Positions 7,296 through 59,069 of a stretch of 64,000 nucleotides of DNA are shown here, one piece after another. Each line of letters begins with the position of its first letter. Position 1 is the stretch's first letter. Source of the DNA: Octopus vulgaris (lineage: Eukaryota); assembly GCA_951406725.2 (NCBI GenBank), contig OX597814.1, positions 134,230,001-134,294,000 of the forward strand, given 5' to 3'. Below the pieces are notes generated by a model that did no database searches, was not told the origin of the DNA, and saw only the letters and a program-made list of their open reading frames with translations. Made by a program: the position numbers and the translations under genes.

Positions 7296-7614
7296 ATTTT
7301 CCTTAACCACGCGTTGAAAACAATAGTGATCATTTGCTGTATTTAGTCGTTTTGAAATTTTTAATCAAGGGTACATTTTTTACCAGTCTGTGTTAGTTTT
7401 TAAATTGTTTCCATGATTGTTTCCGAAAATCTGAAATTAACAAGATAAATGAAATATGCTCTGAGGCCGAAGATGTTCAAAGTCAATAGAAATTACATCC
7501 ACCTCGCCAGTCCAGGAATGTCTTCACTTGTAAAGAAAGCTATTTGTTCGTCTTACTGAACCATTAGAATTAAAAGATGTAATTTCAAAACAAGGCTAAA
7601 TACATGCTCTTATA

Positions 7615-7685
7615 TACTCTTTTACTCTTTTAATTGTTTCAGTCACTTGACTGCGGCCATGCTGGAGCACCGCCTTTTAGTCGGT
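7615..7685 (-). mobile_element. SINE family B 3' fragment
   Basis: TTTACTCTTTTA..GTTTCAGTCA..TGCGGCCATGCTGGAGCACCGCC matches the family B tail. Confidence 0.7.
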
Positions 7686-7727
7686 GCTCCATGGAATAAA
7701 TTTAGATGCTTCACATTGTGTTGCATA

Positions 7728-8531
7728 ATATTGGTTTCAAATTTTGACACAAGGCCAGTATTTCGAGGGATAAGTTAAGTCGATCACATTGACTCCAGTG
7801 GTCAACTAGTACTTATTTCATCGACCCTGAATGGATGAGAAACAAAGTCGACATCGGCGGAATTTGAACTTATAACGTAAAGACGGGCGAAATGCTGCTA
7901 AGCATTATGCTTGGTGTGCTAACGATTCTTATTTCTTTACTACCCACAAGGGGCTAAACATAGAGGGGACAAACAAGAACAGACAAACGGATTAAGTTGA
8001 TTACATCGACCCCAGTGCGTAACTGGTATTTAATTTATCAATCCCGAAAGGATGAAAGGCAAAGTCGACCTCGGCGGAATTTGAACTCAGAACGTAACGG
8101 CAGACGAAATACCTATTTCTTTACTACCCACAAGGGGCAAAACACAGAGAGGACAAACAAGGACAGACAAACGGATTAAGTCGATTACATCGACCCCAGT
8201 GTTCAACTGGTACTTATTTAATCGACCCCGAAAGGTTGAAAGGCAAAGTCGACCTCGGCAGAATTTGAACTCAGAACGTAGCGGCAGACGAAATACCTAT
8301 TTCTTTACTACCCACAAGGGGAAAAACACAGAGAGGACAAACAAGGACAGACAAACGGTTTAAGTCGATTATATCGAGCCCAGTGCGTAACTGGTACTTA
8401 TTTAATCGACCCCGAAAGGATGAAAGGCAAAGTCGACCTCGGCGGAATTTGAACGCAGAACGTAACGGCAGACGAAATACGGCTACGCATTTCGCCCGCG
8501 TGCTAACGTTTTTGCCAGCTCGCCGCCTTAA
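7728..8531 (-). mobile_element. Tandem array of four family A SINE units: three ~184-bp units with a Tx1-like tail plus one with the ordinary tail
   Basis: Tail TATTTCTTTACTACCCACAAGGGG starts at about 7930, 8114 and 8298; only one complete head at about 8481-8531. Confidence 0.9.
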
Positions 8532-9314
8532 TGTGTTGCGTAATATTAATGCATCATATTTGACGCACATGGTTGGCATGATTCTCATCGCATTCGATTA
8601 TCAATAAGTTGAGTACCAGTGATATGCTACGATTTCAGCTGTATACCGACACCATTTTAAATAAATTGCAATATTCTATTTCATCTTCACTTGCTTCTGT
8701 ATTTAAAATTTCTTGCCTTTAAGTCAACTTTATTTTGCATTTTACGCAAGAACGATTGGATAGATACCAGAAATATATAGTAATGAAATTGACTATATCC
8801 TTACCGAGAAAAATGTTGACTTCGTGCCTAGTCAAAATAAGTTAATAATTGTACAAGAAACATTCTTTCTACTGTCATTAGGTAAGTATAACTAAAAGGC
8901 ATTTTGCCAGAACACAAAATCTGAAAAAGATTTTGATTTTTTTTATGAATGTTTAGATTCACTGGTATCAGTTCAAAATGTTCATGTTATTGTATCTATT
9001 ATTTTATCAAGCACAATTTCCATCTCCTGATTGTGTATCTAACATCAAAATCAATACATAGTCACTAACGAGCATATCTGTGGTCTCAGTTCTCGTGGAC
9101 TTAGTCCTATTATAGGATAGGAAATACCAACTTTTGAGTTGGTTGTACAGTATCATCACATTGTGTTTGACTTTGCTTTTCGTTTTCCAAAGTCGACTAA
9201 ATTACTACTAGAAAAGGTCTGAAATAAATTATATTCGATGGCCTAGTACCGAAGTTACACTATATCTGTCTATTTATCTATCTTTCTTTCTATCTATCTA
9301 TCTCTCTTTTTTTC

Positions 9315-9572
9315 TTTTTTACTCTTTTACTTGTTTCGGTCATTTGACTGTAGCCACGTTGGAGCACCGCCTTTAGTCGAGCACATCGACCCCAGGACTT
9401 AGTCTTTGTAAGCCTAGTATTTATTCTATTGTTCTCTTTTTGCCGAACCGCTAAGTTACGGGGACGTAAACACACCAGGATCGGTTGTCAAGCGACGTTG
9501 GGGGGACAAACACAGACACACAAACATACACACACACACATACATACATACATACATACATACATACATACA

Positions 9573-9606
<34 letters not shown>

Positions 9607-9826
9607 CATACATACATACATACATACATACATACATACATACATACATACATACATACATACATACATACATACATACATACATACGACGAGCTTCTTT
9701 CAGTTTCCGTCTACCAAATCCACTCACAAGGCTTTGGTTGGCCCGAATCTATAGTAGTAGACACTTGCCACGCAGTGGGACTAAACCCGTAAGCAAGCTG
9801 ATTACCACACAGCCACTCCTACGCCT
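9315..9826 (-). mobile_element. tRNA-derived SINE family B with internal (TACA)n
   Basis: Head (rc) GGCGTAGGAGTGGCTGTGTGGTAA, body CCAAAGCCTTGTGAGTGGATTTGGTAGACGG, tail GACCGAAACAAGTAAAAGAG; microsatellite at 9530-9686. Confidence 0.9.
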
Positions 9827-9828
9827 AT

Positions 9829-18427: not shown

Positions 18428-18731
18428 TTCGGCTTACAAAGAATGTAGTCTTGGGTCGATTTCTTCGACTAAAGCACTTTAAGGCGGTACTCCAGCATGA
18501 CTGCAGTCAAATGACTGAAACAAATAAAAGAATAAAAGAATATATTAATATATATTTATATCCATGTATAGGCACAAGCGTAGGTGTGTTGTAAGAAACA
18601 TGCTTCCCAACCACATGGTCCTGTGTTCAGTCTCACTGCGTAACACCTTGGGCAAGTGTCTTCTACTATAACTTCGCGCTAACCAAAGCCTTGTGAGTGG
18701 CTTTGGTAGAAGGAAACTGAAAAAAACCTGT

Positions 18732-18809
<78 letters not shown>

Positions 18810-19056
18810 CGTGTGTGTGTGTGTGTGTGCGTGTGTGTGTGCGTGTCTGTGTGTGCCTTTCTGTCTGTGTTCGTCCCCCACCATCCCTTGACAATCGGTG
18901 AGCTTACGTCCTTTTAACTTAACAGATCGGCAAAAGAACTGATAGTATAAGTATCAGGCCTTAAAAAAGTACTGAGATCGATTCATTCCTCTAAAAATTC
19001 TTTCATGCGGAGTCCCAGCATAACCGAAGTTTAATGACTGAAACAAGTAAAAATGA
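18428..19056 (+). mobile_element. SINE family B: a 3' fragment (18428-18540) followed by a full copy with internal (TG)n (18570-19056)
   Basis: Family B head, ACCTTGGGCAAGTGTCTTCTACT core and ATGACTGAAACAA tail. Confidence 0.85.
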
Positions 19057-20859: not shown

Positions 20860-23931
<3,072 letters not shown>

Positions 23932-24731: not shown

Positions 24732-24827
<96 letters not shown>

Positions 24828-24909
24828 GAGAATGGGGGGAGACCCACTTCGGTCATGAATAACCATGAGATTGCACCGAGAAAGTCCGGGGGCAAGGTTA
24901 TTTATGGGA

Positions 24910-25140
24910 GATATAATCGGCTTAATCTGTTTGTCTGTCCTTGTTTGTCCTTTCTGTGTAGTAAAGAAATAGGTATTTCGTCTGCCGTTACGTTCTGAGT
25001 TCAAATTCCGCCGAGGTCGACTTTGCCTTTCATCCTTTCGGGGTCGATAAATTAAGTACCAGTTGCGTACTGGTGTCGATCTAATAGACTGGTTCACTCT
25101 CCTAAAATTTCGAGCCTTGTGCCTAGTGTAGAAAAGAATA
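24910..25140 (+). mobile_element. Tx1-like SINE tail joined to a family A SINE body
   Basis: ...TTGTTTGTCC..GTAGTAAAGAAATAG|GTATTTCGTCTGCCGTTACG...; junction 24972/24973. Confidence 0.85.
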
Positions 25141-25334
25141 AATTAATTTGTACATAACTATAGTTTAAATAACAGAGAATGAATCACTTTAGTGTATTTA
25201 CAGTATGTTCGGGCTAAATTTGACGATTTTTATGTCTCCTTTTCTCAACACCAGCTTGATATATTGCTGAAGAACCAAAAGCATTATGAGCATGAAAATT
25301 AAAGCTGTAGTTGAGAAAAAGTTAGCTGACAATA

Positions 25335-25722
25335 TTTTAAATTTTGATACAAGGCCAGCAATTTCAGAGGAAGGGATAAGTCAATTGTATCGACCCCAGT
25401 GTTCAACAGGTACTTATTTTATCGTCTCCGAAAGGATGAAAGGCAAAATCGACCCCGGCAACATTTGAACTCTGAAAGTCGGAAGAAATACCTATTTCTG
25501 TTTCTTTACTACCCACAAGGGGCTAAACACAAGGAGGACAGACAAACGGATTAAGTCGATTATATCGACCCCAATGCGTAACTGGTACTTATTTAATCGA
25601 CCCCGAAAGGATGAAAGGCAAAGTCGACCTCGGCGGAATTTGAACTCAGAACGTAACGGCAGACGAAATACCGCTAAGCATTTCGCCCGGCGTGCTAACG
25701 ATTCTGCCAGCTCGCCGCCTTG
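25335..25722 (-). mobile_element. Two-unit family A SINE array: full copy with Tx1-like tail joined to a more diverged headless copy
   Basis: Full head at 25672-25722; tail junction GAAATAC|CTATTTC at 25491/25492. Confidence 0.88.
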
Positions 25723-25759
25723 AAAAAGTTAGCTGCCATGGAGGACTGAAAACCGTTTG

Positions 25760-26204: not shown

Positions 26205-26440
26205 TATTCTTTTATTCTTTTATTTGTTTCAGTCAACTGACTGTGGCTATGCTGGAGCACCGCCTTTAGTCGAACAAGTCGACCCCAGAACTTATTCTTT
26301 GTAAGCCTAGTATTTATTCTATCAGTCTCTTTGCCGAACTACTAAGTTACGGGGACGTAAACACAACAGCATCGGTTGTCAAGCGATGTTGGGGGGGGAC
26401 AAACACAGACACACAAACACAAACACACAAACACGCATAT

Positions 26441-26502
<62 letters not shown>

Positions 26503-26665
26503 GACGGGCTTCTTTCAGTTTCCGTTTACCAAATCCACTCACAAGGCTTTGGTCTGCCCGAAGCTATAGTAGAAGACACTTGCCCAAGGTGCCACACAGT
26601 GGGACTGAACCCGAAACCATGTGGTTGGTAAGCAAGCTACTTACCACACAGCCACGCCTGCGCCT
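26205..26665 (-). mobile_element. SINE family B with internal (TA)n
   Basis: Full-length match to the family B consensus. Confidence 0.9.
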
Positions 26666-27869
26666 ATTTTCTCAAGTAATTAATATTATGGATGGAGAGG
26701 GTTGCTGCTGTAAGGCCAAATGTGTGCCAGCAGGATTCGGCTCCTTGCCATACCTCTGGAAAGAGTCAAAAGTGGTTGTCGGGGAATTTCTACAGCTATG
26801 TTTATTTAGATAACCAATTCTGCATCTATATTTATTTTTCCTAATCTTGCGGTTGTTTTGTAGGTTTGTGGTGTGTTGTGGTTATGTTTGTTTGAATATT
26901 GTTCTGTTGTCAGTTCGAGTTGGTTAGCTAGAATTGTTTTGCCTTTACTGAACACTCACACGTTGTCTTCGACGGAAAATTCCATCATCATCACCATCAT
27001 CATCTTCATCATCATTACCTCCATCATCAGTATCATCAGCATCATCCTCATATATGAAAAACAAAATAGTTAAACCGGTGAGATTTGAGCTCAGAAATGT
27101 AAAATGGACATAATTAAATACTACAATACATTTTGTTAGATGCTCTTCTACTTCAACTGCCCTCCACTACCCTTCCGGTCACTTCTAAATATTAAAGCAA
27201 ACATGAAGATGAGGTTATTATAATGCCATTAATTAATAATTGTGAGAGTAATATTTAATTATTTGGAAATTCAATAAAAACATTAAATTGAATAAAATGA
27301 ATAAATATTTTAATATTCTTTAACTTGTTTTTCTTTAATTGTAATATCTTTAAAACATTCACTGAACGATTAATTTTAATATTAATTACTTGAGAAAACT
27401 TTTAACTATGATTACATTTCTAATTAAAAAGGATCGCCTTTTAACCATCCACAGGCCACTTGCTCCTTTCTACAAATGCTGCGAATAGACAACTTATAGT
27501 TACAATTACGTAAAAGTAAGTGCTACAGAATCTCGATCTGAAAAACACAACAGCCAAATTTCCCTCAAATCATACCATAGCAAATTAGAAAAGGCATTTG
27601 CATGATTCCTTTAGTTCCCGTGACATGAGGTCACAGGGAGAAAATGCCACCTTTATTTCCGGCGTTCTTGGGTTTGTTCGATCAAAGCCGACTGAGATCA
27701 AACAACAACAAATACAATTCAGCAATACATTTGTCTTGGATTTTTATACATAAACCTTTGAGATCATGCCTCAGCACTAAATATTATGACACAAAAGACA
27801 GCACAAGCAAATGAACCACGAATTCTCAGACATCAGAATTACATTTGAAGTTATATCTTGTATCATATT

Positions 27870-35430: not shown

Positions 35431-36395
35431 TTAGGTTGTCAAGAAAGTTCTTGCGGTTTTTAACCTTTAAATTCAGATGCACATATCTCGGCTCAAACAA
35501 AACTTTATTAATCGAAATAAACACAATCAGAATCATCACACTTTATCCAACGCGAAACAAGTTTATTTATGCCAGTTGTGTAAAAATCCTGCGTTCTGGT
35601 GGCGATGAAGTCGTTGAAGGCGTGTTTGGCATTATCTTGGTTTTTTAAGCATTTCTCACGCAGGATGTTGTCGAGATGCTTGAAAAAGTGGTAGTCGGTA
35701 GGCGAGAGGTCTAGTGAGTATGGTGGATGAGGAAGAGTTTCGTAGCCCAATTCGTTCAACATCTGCAGGGTCAATTGTGCGACTTGCGGCTGAGCGTTGT
35801 CGTCCAGAAAAATTGATCCTTTTCTATTGACCAATGCTGGCCGTTGTCGGAGTTTCTTATGCATTTCATCCATTTGCTGACAGTTCTCCGCCGTAATGGT
35901 TTCGCTTGGATCCAAAAAGCTGTGATGGATGAGACCGGCTGCAGACCACAAAACAGTCACCATGACCTTTTGGTGCAACTTTGGCTTCGGAAAGTGCCGT
36001 GGAGCTTCATCGACGTCCAACCAGTGAGCTGAGCGTCGCCGGTTGTCGTAAAGAATCCACTTTTCATCGCAAGTCACAATCCGGTCGAGAAACGGGTCGT
36101 TCTTGTTGCGTAAAAGAAGGGAAGATGACACTTCAAAACGGCGTTTTTTTTTATATATTTGGTCGTCGTTCAATTCGTGCGGCACCCATTTCTAGTGTAG
36201 TATACGTTACGTCTAATTTAGAAGCAAGCTCTCGAACAGTTGTGCGTGGATTGCCTTCGACTAAGGCTTTTCGTTGATCGTTGTCAACATCCGATGGCCA
36301 ACCATTACGCTTACCATCTTCAAGACTCTCGTCACCGCAACGAAATTTTTTGAACCACTATTGTGCTGTACGTTCATTAGTGGTATGCATGTATA
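35431..36395 (-). mobile_element. Mariner transposon with a 225-aa D,D34D catalytic domain ORF (35508-36185); N-terminus frameshifted and truncated
   Basis: [26 protein letters not shown] with 34 residues between the second and third D; TA followed by TTAGGTTGTCAAGAAAGTTC terminal repeat. Confidence 0.9.

Positions 36396-40784: not shown

Positions 40785-40871
<87 letters not shown>
40755..40871. repeat. (AAT)n/(AAC)n microsatellite
   Basis: Directly visible. Confidence 0.95.
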
Positions 40872-42945
40872 TTCTTTATTAACCACAAGGGTTTACATTA
40901 AGAAAAGCATTATGGACAGTACAGGACGAAACAAAGAATGTATGTGTGTTAGTGTGTTGTAAACAAGACTAACAAAATAAAAGGAAAGAAATCAATAATA
41001 AGGAGACGTTCGAGGACTGCTAATGGAAAAACCCTTTAAAAACCATGGGTACCCTGACTTTTAGGGCAAGTTCCCTTTTTCCTTTCCTTTTTTCCAACTA
41101 CAGGCGTATGCTCAGGGCAAGCCCGTTCACTCGCACCATTCTCGCTGCTTTCATCCACATGTCAGCAAACTGGCAAGAAGACAACACTTCCCTCTCTACT
41201 CTTATTTTCCTTTTCGAAGTGAAACTTGAAGAAGTCCATCAGGGATTGGCCAAAGAGAAAATTGTTTGTCTTCAACCCCTTCAATCTCATTCACCATACA
41301 ACCTCTTTCGCCATGGCGAAACCCTCACAACAACACACACACACACACTCACACACATGCATTCTTTGTTTTGTCCTGTACTGTCCATAATGAAAGGTCG
41401 GGCAGAGGTGACTAACGCGTGTATCGCGTCCTTGTCTACTATCGCTTGACCGTTGCGCCTTGACCTGGCCACCGTCTGATTACGCTGGAGAGTATGCTCT
41501 TCCGCTTCTTGTGGAAGGGACGCGTCACGATGGTCAGGTGGCCTACCTGCTGTCAACACCTGCTGCGTGGTAGCTTGGGCTGAAGCTATGACATCTCCAG
41601 TGCTTCCTTGGCGGTGAACAGGTGTGGTCGCCGTTCGCCAGACACGTATATCCGCAGCTAGTTTCTTTCATGGAGCTGCAGTCCTGGGTCAAACAAAAAC
41701 CGAGGGGAGAATTCGGAAAGTGGAATGTCTTCAAGCGCTCACAGCCCTCAGCCAATCGGACACTGCGATAGGTGGAACGTCCACCATAGCTTTTTATAGA
41801 GGATTAGTGGAGGAAAAGTGCGACGACGTTCTTGGGGAGACCTTGGGCGTCGTAGAAGATCAGCTAGCCGCTCTTTTCCGGAGAACTTTCAGCCCCTGGA
41901 ACGATGGATAATTTCCAAAAATATCTGGCTCGGCAGTGCTACCGGGGAGCTTTGTCTGTTCGAGATAAACTTTACGGGCACAGAAGTGTCGTTAGCCGAG
42001 CACGTCCGAGATGCGCGCAAGACGACAAGACGGTCCTGCATGCACTTGTCCTATGCCCGAACATTGCTGTGAGTTTATATCGAACACCTGTTGTCGTCTG
42101 TGGCACAGATCCAACGTGGAAATCGCCCTGCTGCCTTCCTTTAACCGGGAAAGAAAGGCTGTGTTTATATGCCTGGTGACCATACTCGGCCCATTTCTGG
42201 GTGAGAGTAGTCATCCTGCTCGTTACCTCGTCTCAGTTTTTGTCTGTCTGGAGGTCCGGACCAAACCAGACCTCGAGCAATTTAACCGGTCCGTCCAGCA
42301 CCCAACGACGCAATTGGACGACATGTAATTGCTTCTCCAGCGGCCGAGATGCAAGCCCACTGATGTTTCCTGGTTAATCATCGCTTCTGAAACCGCCCCA
42401 TAGTCCCTGAGAGCAATGCCGATCATTTCTATGTGTTTATGATCTGACACCATACGGTAACGTCGTCAGCATGTGCCGACACGCATCTTCCACATCCTTG
42501 GTCACGTGGGATACTTCCTCTCAACACCTCCAATTTGTGTAGTAGTAGCTCGAGAGTCAGTACATACAAGAGAGACGAGAGGGGACACTCTTACCAGACC
42601 GAGCGCATGATGTTGAACGGCTCTGAGAGGTGACTGCTCACTCTGACCTCTGAACAGATGTCGCTGTGCATATATGACCGAAACCAGCTGTCTTGAAGAC
42701 CTCCACCAGGTATAGATGATCGACTCTATCGAAAGCTTTAGACTGATCTAAATTGATCAGGGTTCCACTCGTGCCAGGTTCTTTAGCCACTTTCTCAATG
42801 ATGTATCGCATGGGGTGGAGGTTGTCGTGGATGGATCTTTCCGGGATGGCACATATATGTGCCTCCTTACCAGATCCACGGCGACAAGCGCCAACCTCGT
42901 AGCTAACACCTTGGCCAAAATTTTGAACTCTGCATTCACCAACTT
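40872..42945 (-). mobile_element. Second, older 5'-truncated Tx1-type element with an internal ~800-bp inversion (41385-42183)
   Basis: Minus strand: FKILAKVLA, IHDNLH, LDQSKAFDRV, HADD, KWAE. Plus strand: KGRAEV...MDNFQ..RDKLY..CPN..RKAVFICLV. Minus strand again: MAK..KIRVEREVLSS. 3' end AATAAAGAAA on (TTA)n. Confidence 0.85.
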
Positions 42946-42961
42946 CAGAAAAGGTGTACTG

Positions 42962-43623
42962 AGGGAAGGTGTCAGCAAAATGTAGAGTTTGGGGAATTTG
43001 GGATGAAACAATGGCACACATTGTTGCAGAATGTCCCAAGTTGGCTCAGGGAGAATATAAAAAATGGAGGTATGGCCAAGATGTGAAAGTTTTGCACTGG
43101 AAGCTCTGTCAGAAATGGGAGTACTTGATTGAAAGAGTGCTTGAGTCGGAGAAATGCAAGATTTTATGGGATTTTTTAATTCAAACGGATAAGAAAATGG
43201 AAAATGATAAATCAGATATAACAATAATAGACAAGGAAAAGCAAAGTTGCTTACTAATTGATCTAGTATATCCATTTGATTCCATGACTGAAAAGAAAGA
43301 AAATGAAAATTTTAAAATATACAATCCCTTAAAATTTGAAATTGCAAGAATTTGGAATATGAAAACTTTAAAGGTTATACCAGTAATAATCGGTGCATTA
43401 TGGACTGTGAGTGATAGTACAGACACATGGTTGAAAGTGATTGGAATAGAATGTCCCGTAGACTTTCTACAGCAAGTTTGCCTCATCGGAACAGGAAAGA
43501 TTATCAGAAGGGTTTTAAGCACTTGAAAGAATATTTAAAGCTTGTGAATATCTAAGATTACACACAGTAAACCGCTACCCGCATAAATTCTACCGGAAAT
43601 AAAACCAAACCTGAGTCAACTCG
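42962..43623 (+). mobile_element. 5'-truncated R4/Dong-type element (zinc knuckle plus restriction-like endonuclease)
   Basis: CRVW..ETMAHIVAECPKLAQGEYK, KILWDF, KSDI..DK..CLLID, VIPVIIGA; ends in AATAATAATAAT. Confidence 0.85.
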
Positions 43624-46350: not shown

Positions 46351-46499
46351 ATGCTGTGGGAACCGGGGCAGTTTTCTCTATGAAGGCCTTTTTTAGTCTA
46401 TCCACTGATATAGTATCTTTACGACCATTGAGGTCTATAGTGAAAATTTTATCCGTGCGTGAAAGAAAACGGAAAGGACCTGCATACGGTGTTTTTTTT

Positions 46500-46970
<471 letters not shown>

Positions 46971-47319
46971 AACGGAGGTTTAACAACATCGTTGCGCACA
47001 AAAACGTGAGTCCAAGAAGTAAAGCTTCCTTCAAGGCAGAGTTAGAAATGCAATTGTCAAGTAGGTAAGAGGTTTTAAACAGGAGAGATATATTCAAAAT
47101 TGGTAGAACTAAAAATTGTCGAGGATAAATTAAATTTATTATTGTTACTGAACGGTTTTGCTGCCGAGTAAAATTAAATAATAGAGAAACGGAAACAAAA
47201 CTTTGGAAACAGCAACGCCACCATAGCTTACGTGGAAACCATGAGGTTGCTTTCAAGGGAGATAATCAGAGAAAGACTTGAAAGAACGTAAGATCGTAAT
47301 ACTTCATGTAAAGTAAATA

Positions 47320-53224: not shown

Positions 53225-53580
53225 ATGCGTAGGAGTGGCTGCGCGGTAAGTTGCTTGCTTACGAACCACATGGTGCCGACCAAAACCTTGTGAGTGGATT
53301 TGGTAGACGTAAACTGAAGGAAGCTCGTCGTACATATGCATATATATGTATGTGTGTGTATATGTTTGTGTGTCTGTATTTGCCCCCCTCCCAACATCGC
53401 TTGACAACCGATGCTGGTGTGTTTATGTCCCTGTAACTTAGCAGTTCGGCAAAAGAGACCGATAGAATAAGTATTAGACTTACAAAGAATAAGTCCTGGG
53501 GTCCATTTGCTCGACTAAAGGCGGTGCTCCAGCATGGCCACAGTCAAATGACTGAAACAAGTAAAAAGAGTAAAAAAAAG
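53225..53580 (+). mobile_element. SINE family B (short internal repeat, partial deletion)
   Basis: GCGTAGGAGTGGCTG...CCTTGTGAGTGGATTTGGTAGAC...ATGACTGAAACAAGTAAAAAGAG. Confidence 0.88.
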
Positions 53581-54854
53581 AGAGAATGCTGAGAAATATA
53601 GAAACAAGAAATTTTTAGTGAAATATATTTCTCCTCTCAATTAAGCAAAGCATTTTAGTGGTGCTATGACTTCAAAGTATGCTAAAGAATTTCGAAGAAA
53701 CTGTATTGTATTCTATTATAAGACTTCTCACATCAACTCGAATAAAGGACTGCAACGTAAGAATCAAGCAAATAACTACTAGCATTTCTTTGCCATTTAA
53801 ATTGAATAAGATTAGTTTCATTGGCTTCAACATCATAATTTTGAATTTCACAATTTTAAGTCTTCAAAATGTTATCTCTTTTCTCTTGAGATTAAAATAA
53901 AATTAGACCCATAAAACGTCACATAGTTGGCCGAATCAGTAACCTTGTTAGTCTATAGGCTGCAAAGTTTTAGTTTCAAATCATATCAGGTAATACCTTA
54001 TCTACTCAACTATTTGAATTTTATACTGTACCTATTTATTGATCAGTATTTGTTGCACGCATGTGTAGAAAATGGCTGACTGTAGAACTATGGCGTATAT
54101 GTTTTGCATCTCCTACTTCGAATAAAAAGAATTGATTCTAAATTCATTTAAAACCGGCAGCAACTTTGTTGTTCGTCTTTATGAAACTCGATAAATTAAC
54201 TACCAGTAATATACTGTGGCTGTTACAGTCGCTTATACTCCAGGACAAGTAGGAAGTCTCATTTGTTACTTGACAGTTAATTGCCATCGAATCGTTGTAA
54301 TCATTACTAACAAACGAACCTCAACTCTGTACGGAAAACTCTGTTTTAGAATTGAAATAGATCAGCTAAAAACATTATGTCTGACAGAAGGCAATTAAGG
54401 AAAATAAAATTCAATAAATAAGTGATCCGTCAGTGAGAAAAGCAACAGCTACTAAAACATCAAAGATTTATAAACGGAATGTTTATTCTTTTGACATATA
54501 TAACGTGTATTTCGTAACAAAATTGTCCAAAGAAAGACCTCTGATCATAAACTGGAGTCGAAAAGTGTGAAGTTAATAATTAAATCAGTTCTTTTAGTTA
54601 ACGTTATTAGAGAAAGAGAACCTGAAGAAAGTAAAACTTCTGTTCTTTTTTTTTTTTTTTTTTTTACTAAGCTCTCATGCTGATGTAGTGAAATATGTTG
54701 ATGTCAAGCAACTGAACCACTAAATAAATTGCATACGAAAATATCAGCTTTACATATTATCAAAAGTGATCATATTTTGAGCTGCAAACTTTAGGTCACT
54801 TGTTGTGTGATATACTTTTATATAGTAATTACATTTCTTTCTTGTATATACACA

Positions 54855-59005: not shown

Positions 59006-59069
59006 ATAATAATAATGACGATAATGATTTCTTTTATTTACTACCAGAGCGAAGGATGAGATGACAACC

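Follow-up and report, generated by a model that had tools for sequence, protein, structure and literature searches.

The 64-kb stretch of Octopus vulgaris DNA analysed here (hereafter the window) is animal genomic DNA rich in microsatellites. It carries one SINE family at 12 loci, of which nine are solo copies with ordinary tails and three are composite: array A (8529-7733, minus strand), array C (25721-25332, minus strand) and locus B (24910-25140, plus strand). The inner units of the composite loci end in another tail of LINE type, which is absent from the terminal units; the window holds five such tails to 16 SINE bodies. The composite loci are made up as follows.

8532..8547, minus strand: target-site duplication of array A, upstream copy, 16 nt (15/16 match to 7717-7732; 4/5000 random segments as good)
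8298..8529, minus strand: unit A1, with a complete tRNA-like head (putative A and B boxes), body and LINE-type tail (about 8358-8298)
8114..8297, minus strand: unit A2, headless, starting at site 1 (GGTATTTC), with body and LINE-type tail
7930..8113, minus strand: unit A3, headless, starting at site 1, with subfamily variants unlike those of A1
7733..7929, minus strand: terminal unit A4, an old SINE starting at site 2 (AGAATCG), with an ordinary tail
7717..7732, minus strand: target-site duplication of array A, downstream copy
25722..25738, minus strand: target-site duplication of array C, upstream copy, 17 nt (16/17 match to 25315-25331; 7/5000 random segments as good)
25493..25721, minus strand: unit C1, with a young complete head, body and LINE-type tail, the tail internally deleted and duplicated at its end
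25332..25492, minus strand: terminal unit C2, an old SINE from site 1, with an ordinary tail
25315..25331, minus strand: target-site duplication of array C, downstream copy
24910..24971, plus strand: unit B1, the last ~14 nt of a body and a shortened LINE-type tail (5' part missing; unrelated sequence precedes)
24972..25140, plus strand: terminal unit B2, from site 1, with body and a second kind of ordinary tail

The family is short, dispersed and high in copy number, as tRNA-derived SINEs are, and bears 16-17-nt duplications at 2/2 complete arrays. Motifs that by eye are A-box-like and B-box-like occur in its head, a putative Pol III promoter; ARAGORN and Rfam gave 0 matches. The outer duplications of arrays A and C abut the head start and the ordinary-tail end exactly. 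Since each array lies inside one outer target-site duplication, each occupies one SINE-type insertion site. Both contain a single complete head, as the original prediction had stated, and the unit of about 184 bp that it described is recovered in array A as a tandem period of 184 bp (3.0 copies, 92% match). The LINE-type tail of array C ends in a small duplication, AAAGAAAC-AGAAATA, and that of locus B has an internal deletion and is preceded by only about 14 nt of body. The missing 5' part of B1 is replaced by unrelated sequence (24826-24909) that follows an (AT)n tract and occurs once in the window; the break is probably a deletion joint.

Elsewhere, at 6366-6090 (minus strand), a 47-nt head-only copy that ends 3-4 nt before site 1 adjoins a complete old SINE (period 47). 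It could be a head left over from a targeted insertion whose array later collapsed, or the product of a local duplication. The window also contains a second dispersed repeat family with internal microsatellites (7607-7683, 9284-9828, 18431-19053, 26205-26667, 46492-46971 and 53227-53607) and a Mariner-type transposase fragment (Transposase_1; 35511-36191, minus strand).

The tail motif GTAGTAAAGAAA occurs exactly five times in the 64-kb window, at 7932, 8116, 8300 and 25501 on the minus strand and at 24958 on the plus strand, which bears out the five copies at three loci that had been predicted. Allowing up to one mismatch raises the count to 6, whereas shuffled sequence gives 0.65 on average and 3 at most; the sixth, at 59033 with one mismatch, lies outside any SINE. 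The tails end in AAAGAAATA and continue into GGTATTTC in 4/5 copies and into AGAATCG in the remaining one. All five are joined to the head of their own family at the three loci, and it was rightly noted beforehand that no window tail is followed by unique DNA. Writing the joint as a slash, the main joint (site 1) is GC/GGTATTTC and the second (site 2) the similar GC/AGAATCG; they fall at bases 50 and 17, respectively, counted from the AAGG with which the complete head begins. The five joints first proposed are all real, and each has to be moved by one base because comparison of both junction types assigns a G to the target side. They lie at 8298/8297, 8114/8113 and 7930/7929 in array A, at 24971/24972 in locus B and at 25493/25492 in array C.

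The fifth joint had been placed in the same head as an exception to the rule. Its location there holds, at base 17, and it turns out to be less of an exception, since site 2 (TGGC/AGAAT) resembles site 1 (TAGC/GGTAT). The two were compared over windows of four sizes, which were picked after both sites had been seen, and in three of these site 2 comes first among sense-strand matches to site 1; on both strands it ranks 3-5 of about 325, and in the widest comparison (8+8) it ranks 19 of 315. Judged by its letters, site 2 is a degenerate copy of site 1, and this likeness is among the better arguments for sequence preference. Unit A4, which was entered at site 2, has a mutated site 1 of its own, TAGC/AGCATTTC. 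Altered versions of site 1 include CGTATTTC and GGCATTTC; the former is found in the head of A1 (TAGC/CGTATTTC). This A1 variant (8481-8486) appears to be common, the other base being seen in only 24-34% of the depth of contig set X1 (described below), a figure that may be affected by reference bias. Lead units bearing it might be immune to re-targeting. Occupied sites make up 4/5 of the intact GGTATTTC sites and 0/11 of the altered ones, an association that we do not count as evidence because it would be circular if the element carried the junction in with itself. The junction itself (8290-8304) is a short inverted repeat, perfect and with GG in its middle; in the computed fold of the head, a hairpin loop has the native site 1 (25660-25685) at its 3' foot.

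Two LINEs in the window bear on the origin of the tail.

21120..23931, minus strand: 5'-truncated L1-superfamily LINE (RT and zf-RVT) with a 3' end like the SINE tail and (TATC)n on both sides
40871..43045, minus strand: second L1-superfamily LINE, decayed, similar at its 3' end and ending on (TTA)n

The SINE tail (~60 nt) aligns to the exact 3' ends of both LINEs with scores of 44 and 48, and 0/500 shuffles reach either score. A Helitron reading was dropped because of this match. The first LINE has a 639-residue frame with RVT_1 and zf-RVT domains, the nearest solved structure to its RT is L1 ORF2p, and an APE-type endonuclease domain is present in most of its longer relatives among those listed. 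The best named homolog of the longest RT frame in the window comes from the octopod Argonauta hians (65% identity). Homologs of the window LINE and the protein atlas gave RT and zf-RVT labels only, and the name Tx1 was not found among them; the tail is therefore assigned to the L1 superfamily, and to Tx1 presumptively. The idea of a Tx1-served tail thus stands as regards its likeness to L1-superfamily LINE 3' ends in the window, the narrower Tx1 assignment being conjectural. Both LINEs end on microsatellites, which fits the behaviour of Tx1 elements as recounted in the accessible parts of PMC4494074. As neither ends in a SINE, neither is the partner itself, and we regard the LINE at 21120..23931 as a relative of the presumed partner. 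Folding the tail and both LINE ends as RNA gave weak structures with no clear common form.

In their own right, the long intact RT frame and flanking (TATC)n of the LINE at 21120..23931 make a microsatellite-specific family likely. The (TTA)n end of the decayed LINE (40871-43045) adjoins another repeat, and at 41343-41392 this LINE holds within itself a short repeat of its 3' region. Proteins P0123-P0125 and P0127, which are close (62-73%) relatives of the protein encoded by the window LINE, are catalogued as coming from metagenomes and a bacterial MAG, probably through host contamination.

The units of the composite loci differ in age. Against a young majority sequence, A1-A3 and C1 differ at 1-5/97 non-CpG body columns, whereas A4 differs at 16/97, C2 at 12/94 and B2 at an intermediate 9/97; five of these same units went into the majority sequence, and their own counts are biased in their favour by it. 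The earlier expectation that terminal units have ordinary tails and are more diverged is thereby confirmed for A4 and C2. Nor are the terminal units homogeneous, a point raised as a check on the prediction: A4, C2 and B2 are pairwise 73-81% alike, with two kinds of ordinary tail and two start sites, for which reasons a fixed dimeric SINE was rejected. A4 shares no private difference with C2 or B2, and C2 and B2 share one boundary column. All three terminal units are unrelated and two sites were used, in a sample of three loci.

Relationships among the inner units run across loci. A1 is 98% identical to C1, 17 kb away, and 93% identical to its neighbours A2 and A3, which are themselves 90% alike; these figures, and the LINE-type tail missing from terminal units, speak against a SINE-derived satellite. 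A variant of A3 recurs in B2 and is seen at 34-44% of X1 depth. The tails of A1 and A2 are identical at 63/64 positions and have in common a T run found at no more than 7% of X1 depth, which hints at local exchange. In array C, C2 has old-type bases 8 and 11 nt past the joint and the tail end of C1 is duplicated, so that this joint was formed at the tail end, apart from the others. The head of array C differs at 0/50 columns from the reference head, which is that head itself, and old solo copies differ at 5-17. As this head is wholly young and the terminal unit old, either a young head took the place of an old one or the entire dimer was copied at a later time. C1 and C2 are 83% alike, unlike the near-identical LTRs of a TRIM, and the duplications measure 16-17 nt against about 5 bp, so that a TRIM with a Pol III promoter was also rejected. 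The joints point to at least three separate joining events: at site 1 of young type, at the old-type site 1 in array C, and at site 2.

Four of 24 listed sequence sets were aligned to window positions 8245-8604: two contig sets from two organisms (X1 and X4) and two raw runs (X23 and X24). Alignments were obtained for 454,095 of 35,842,385 records in X1 and 190,260 of 14,162,910 in X4. Relative to four positions in the tail interior, the summed contig depth at 8296 (past the tail) and 8305 (inside the tail end) was 0.94/0.92 in X1 and 0.91/0.91 in X4. A calibrating unitig simulation (3000 copies, 3-5% divergence) gave 0.87-0.95 when 90% of tails ran through and at most 0.61/0.77 when 50% did, from which we estimate that about 90% of tails are at site 1; the simulation used plain unitigs free of indels and subfamilies, and some joints and loose ends are uncounted in the depth data. 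No loose end at the tail end appeared among the six listed for each contig set. Tails followed mostly by unique DNA, which the original prediction had named as an outcome to look for, are thus not what the contig depths indicate. By the measure of target specificity given in the accessible parts of PMC4494074 (one target type in >20% of flanks), the share here is 5/5 in the window and about 90% by depth.

Depth differs from copy number and can weigh a few long arrays as heavily as many dispersed ones; with that in mind, the tail-to-body depth ratio is roughly one third, as in the window (5 tails to 16 bodies), and given this agreement dispersed arrays suffice to account for it. The ordinary-tail type of B2 is a common loose end at 8363. 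An old-type base at 8286, just past the joint, accounts for 3.9% of X1 and 2.6% of X4 depth, so that the bases there are mostly young-type. Such an excess is predicted by inheritance of a single junction, and equally by alignment bias together with a preference for intact sites.

The raw runs X23 and X24 yielded 17 and 230 aligned reads out of 12,895,792 each, and we drew no genome-wide count from them. In eight X24 reads, unrelated DNA comes after the tail. Two loose ends, with 25 and 17 X24 reads, consist of short tandems of tail and junction only, some with a canonical AATAAA, which suggests secondary satellite formation from the junction. Pattern scans for tail and body gave 0 and 0 matches in the metagenome collection, 0 and 0 in the viral one and none among plasmids; in the genomes collection there was 1 match, on a bacterial contig, which we attribute to chance, and no SINE-bearing DNA.

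The feature is real and genome-wide, and the family acts like a target-specific, presumably Tx1-served SINE that has itself as target. We consider it probable that the arrays arose by repeated, site-preferring insertion into the SINE's own head, mediated by an L1/Tx1-type partner. The fuller claim, that the SINE is its own sequence-specific target, having captured an enzyme's tail, being cut at a fixed point in its Pol III head and regaining promoter and landing site with every insertion, strikes us as evenly poised. What these readings start from is that the tail resembles LINE ends, that its joints are constant, that the terminal units are old and unrelated, that there is an outer duplication and that a high proportion of tails sits at the main site; the enzyme's cut, the partner, the pairing of read-through RNA and the resolution of the 5' end by annealing would then fit together in the following way. 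A putative partner enzyme would nick the bottom strand at GC/GGTATTTC, or less often at GC/AGAATCG, and reverse-transcribe from the tail. RNA reading through the tail into the next unit could pair with the nicked target and so sharpen the choice of site; such read-through is plausible because the common form of the tail has no T4 run to stop Pol III. The far end of the cDNA would anneal to the homologous upstream head, leaving neither a second head nor a new duplication, so that one head would be kept and the target site re-made. Repeated in this way, insertion would string together ~184-bp units that stem from different source copies, all within a single old SINE. The accessible text of PMC2718515 offers a precedent for 5' resolution by cDNA annealing in melanogaster-type R1, and that of PMC4494074 one for target preference in Tx1-Mar/SINEU.

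Other routes could lead to similar structures. The main rival is that one or a few founding tail-to-head junctions spread by homology, with no sequence-specific nuclease involved: read-through RNA or cDNA, or array DNA, would use the SINE homology flanking the tail to convert single SINEs to arrays. We rate this as unlikely while acknowledging how much it accounts for: it would explain that the joint is constant, that there is one head and no new duplication, and that about 96% of contig depth shows young-type bases past the joint. The founding event could even have been a one-off skip of a loop, given the inverted-repeat junction and the native site at the foot of a hairpin loop. The reading is strained by array C, where only 8 nt of the ~125-nt homologous body would be open to the crossover and the tail end has been independently altered, and by site 2, which would demand a second founder at a site-1-like site. 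Less probable again, to the point of being doubtful, is that arrays are copied mainly as wholes and targeted joins are rare founding events. The young head would here drive transcription as far as the ordinary tail, whose LINE would insert the multimer with a fresh outer duplication. The wholly young head of array C, with no leftover of an old one, agrees with this, as does the absence of a T4 run between that head and 25448. The three terminal units, however, are unrelated, the units of array A differ in age and subfamily, and the tails of A1 and A2 now hold T runs. Its further support lies in the outer duplications, matching at 15/16 in both arrays against 9-14/16 in 7 solo copies (random mode 8-9). 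The chance of their being kept so well is P 0.03 at an expected pairwise divergence of 20% and 0.12 at 15%, so the excess is significant only if that divergence is at least 20%. The signal is a weak one because the duplication mismatch of the solo copies is near their body divergence, and this age test yields no decision between insertion in place and whole-array copying.

If a SINE segment were duplicated locally in tandem or underwent unequal crossing-over, as in reptile SINE satellites or blood clam arrays, the outward anatomy would be the same as that of the clam arrays described in the accessible parts of PMC11481361. A1 and A2 share a tail variant, and the tail-plus-junction tandems in X24 illustrate that such amplification occurs. 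Yet the repeated tail is absent from the terminal unit and so cannot come from duplicating that SINE, the lead unit is nearer to another locus (A1-C1 98%) than to its neighbours (A1-A2 93%), and the same joint is found at three loci with different terminal units. Local duplication is thus largely refuted as the origin of the arrays, and we give it very little credence in that role; it may have supplied extra units in some of them. Repeated insertion into the SINE's own head remains our preferred reading, with the young head of array C and the well-kept outer duplications also compatible with later re-copying of whole arrays.

Target-specific retroposons are known to use RNA genes, microsatellites and other transposons as safe havens. 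Targeting of the own family, if true, would make new targets in the course of spreading and place young promoters on old copies. The element would then be a self-feeding retroposon that has reached roughly one copy in three within a major SINE family of octopus and lands almost only in its old selves. Retrotransposition would also be able to turn dispersed SINEs into tandem repeats, with a result that looks like unequal crossing-over, and the case would point to an uncharacterised sequence-specific endonuclease with a short site. As SINEs make up 11.6% of the Octopus vulgaris genome in the account of PMC13282606, nested units of young and old age would then be lumped together in automated copy counts and age landscapes. 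That annotation lists 13 recently active L1-Tx1 families and, in its accessible parts, does not mention targeting. The literature covered, which does not extend to most subscription journals, to Repbase Reports or to the octopus SINE paper of 1994, yielded no description of a SINE targeting its own head, and prior notice is possible.

The family may be one of the octopus SINEs already named. tRNA SINEs of octopus were reportedly described by Ohshima and Okada in 1994, and a third name, OK, is used beside OR1 and OR2. Judging by description, these SINEs probably represent the same host group and kind of element. OR1 and OR2 are named in the accessible parts of PMC4824008 and PMC4758252. Tail swapping among SINEs is established according to PMC4824008, and SINEs with L1-type tails were rare in one survey, which found 3 (PMC3747384, accessible in part).

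Among known systems (the sources cited here are accessible in part), the Cassandra, Helenus and Ajax TRIMs also carry small-RNA-like repeats in tandem arrays (PMC10886601). They differ in their paired LTRs and 5-bp duplications, whereas the octopus flanking units are 83% alike (C1 and C2) and the duplications measure 16-17 nt. The TSD-(SINE)n-TSD arrays of Scapharca broughtonii (PMC11481361) and the SINE satellites of squamates (PMC10702118) have, as here, one complete head, headless inner units, a complete terminal tail and one outer duplication. Their units are pieces of one SINE, discussed as products of unequal recombination or of repeated insertion at one locus, whereas the octopus inner units bear a LINE-type tail of foreign origin, are younger than the terminal unit and are not related to it. 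A foreign tail on inner units is described in the accessible text of neither paper.

R1 of the melanogaster type (and R2) has target-bearing transcripts and forms precise 5' joints by cDNA annealing, with no duplication (PMC2718515). Its target is 28S rDNA, and unlike the octopus SINE it is not homologous to the target along its length and does not rebuild the target within itself. Sequence-specific LINEs of the Tx1 clade include Tx1 in Tx1D, Keno in U2, Kibi and Koshi in microsatellites and Dewa in tRNA spacers (PMC4494074, PMC3706591). Like the octopus tails they occupy fixed sites in multicopy targets, and both window LINEs end on microsatellites; they differ in being autonomous, and none is described in the accessible parts of these two papers as targeting a SINE head. 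The closest parallel is with SINEU-3/Tx1-Mar of crocodilians, where a SINE-like element likewise has a strong target preference that is ascribed to a Tx1 partner (PMC4494074). Of 347 near-full copies of SINEU-3, 313 have Mariner-N4_AMi at their flanks, and tandem copies have formed by sequential insertion. SINEU-3 targets another transposon family, has a duplication between tandem copies and possesses an snRNA-derived head, whereas the target of the octopus SINE is its own tRNA-like head and its units are joined with no duplication between them.
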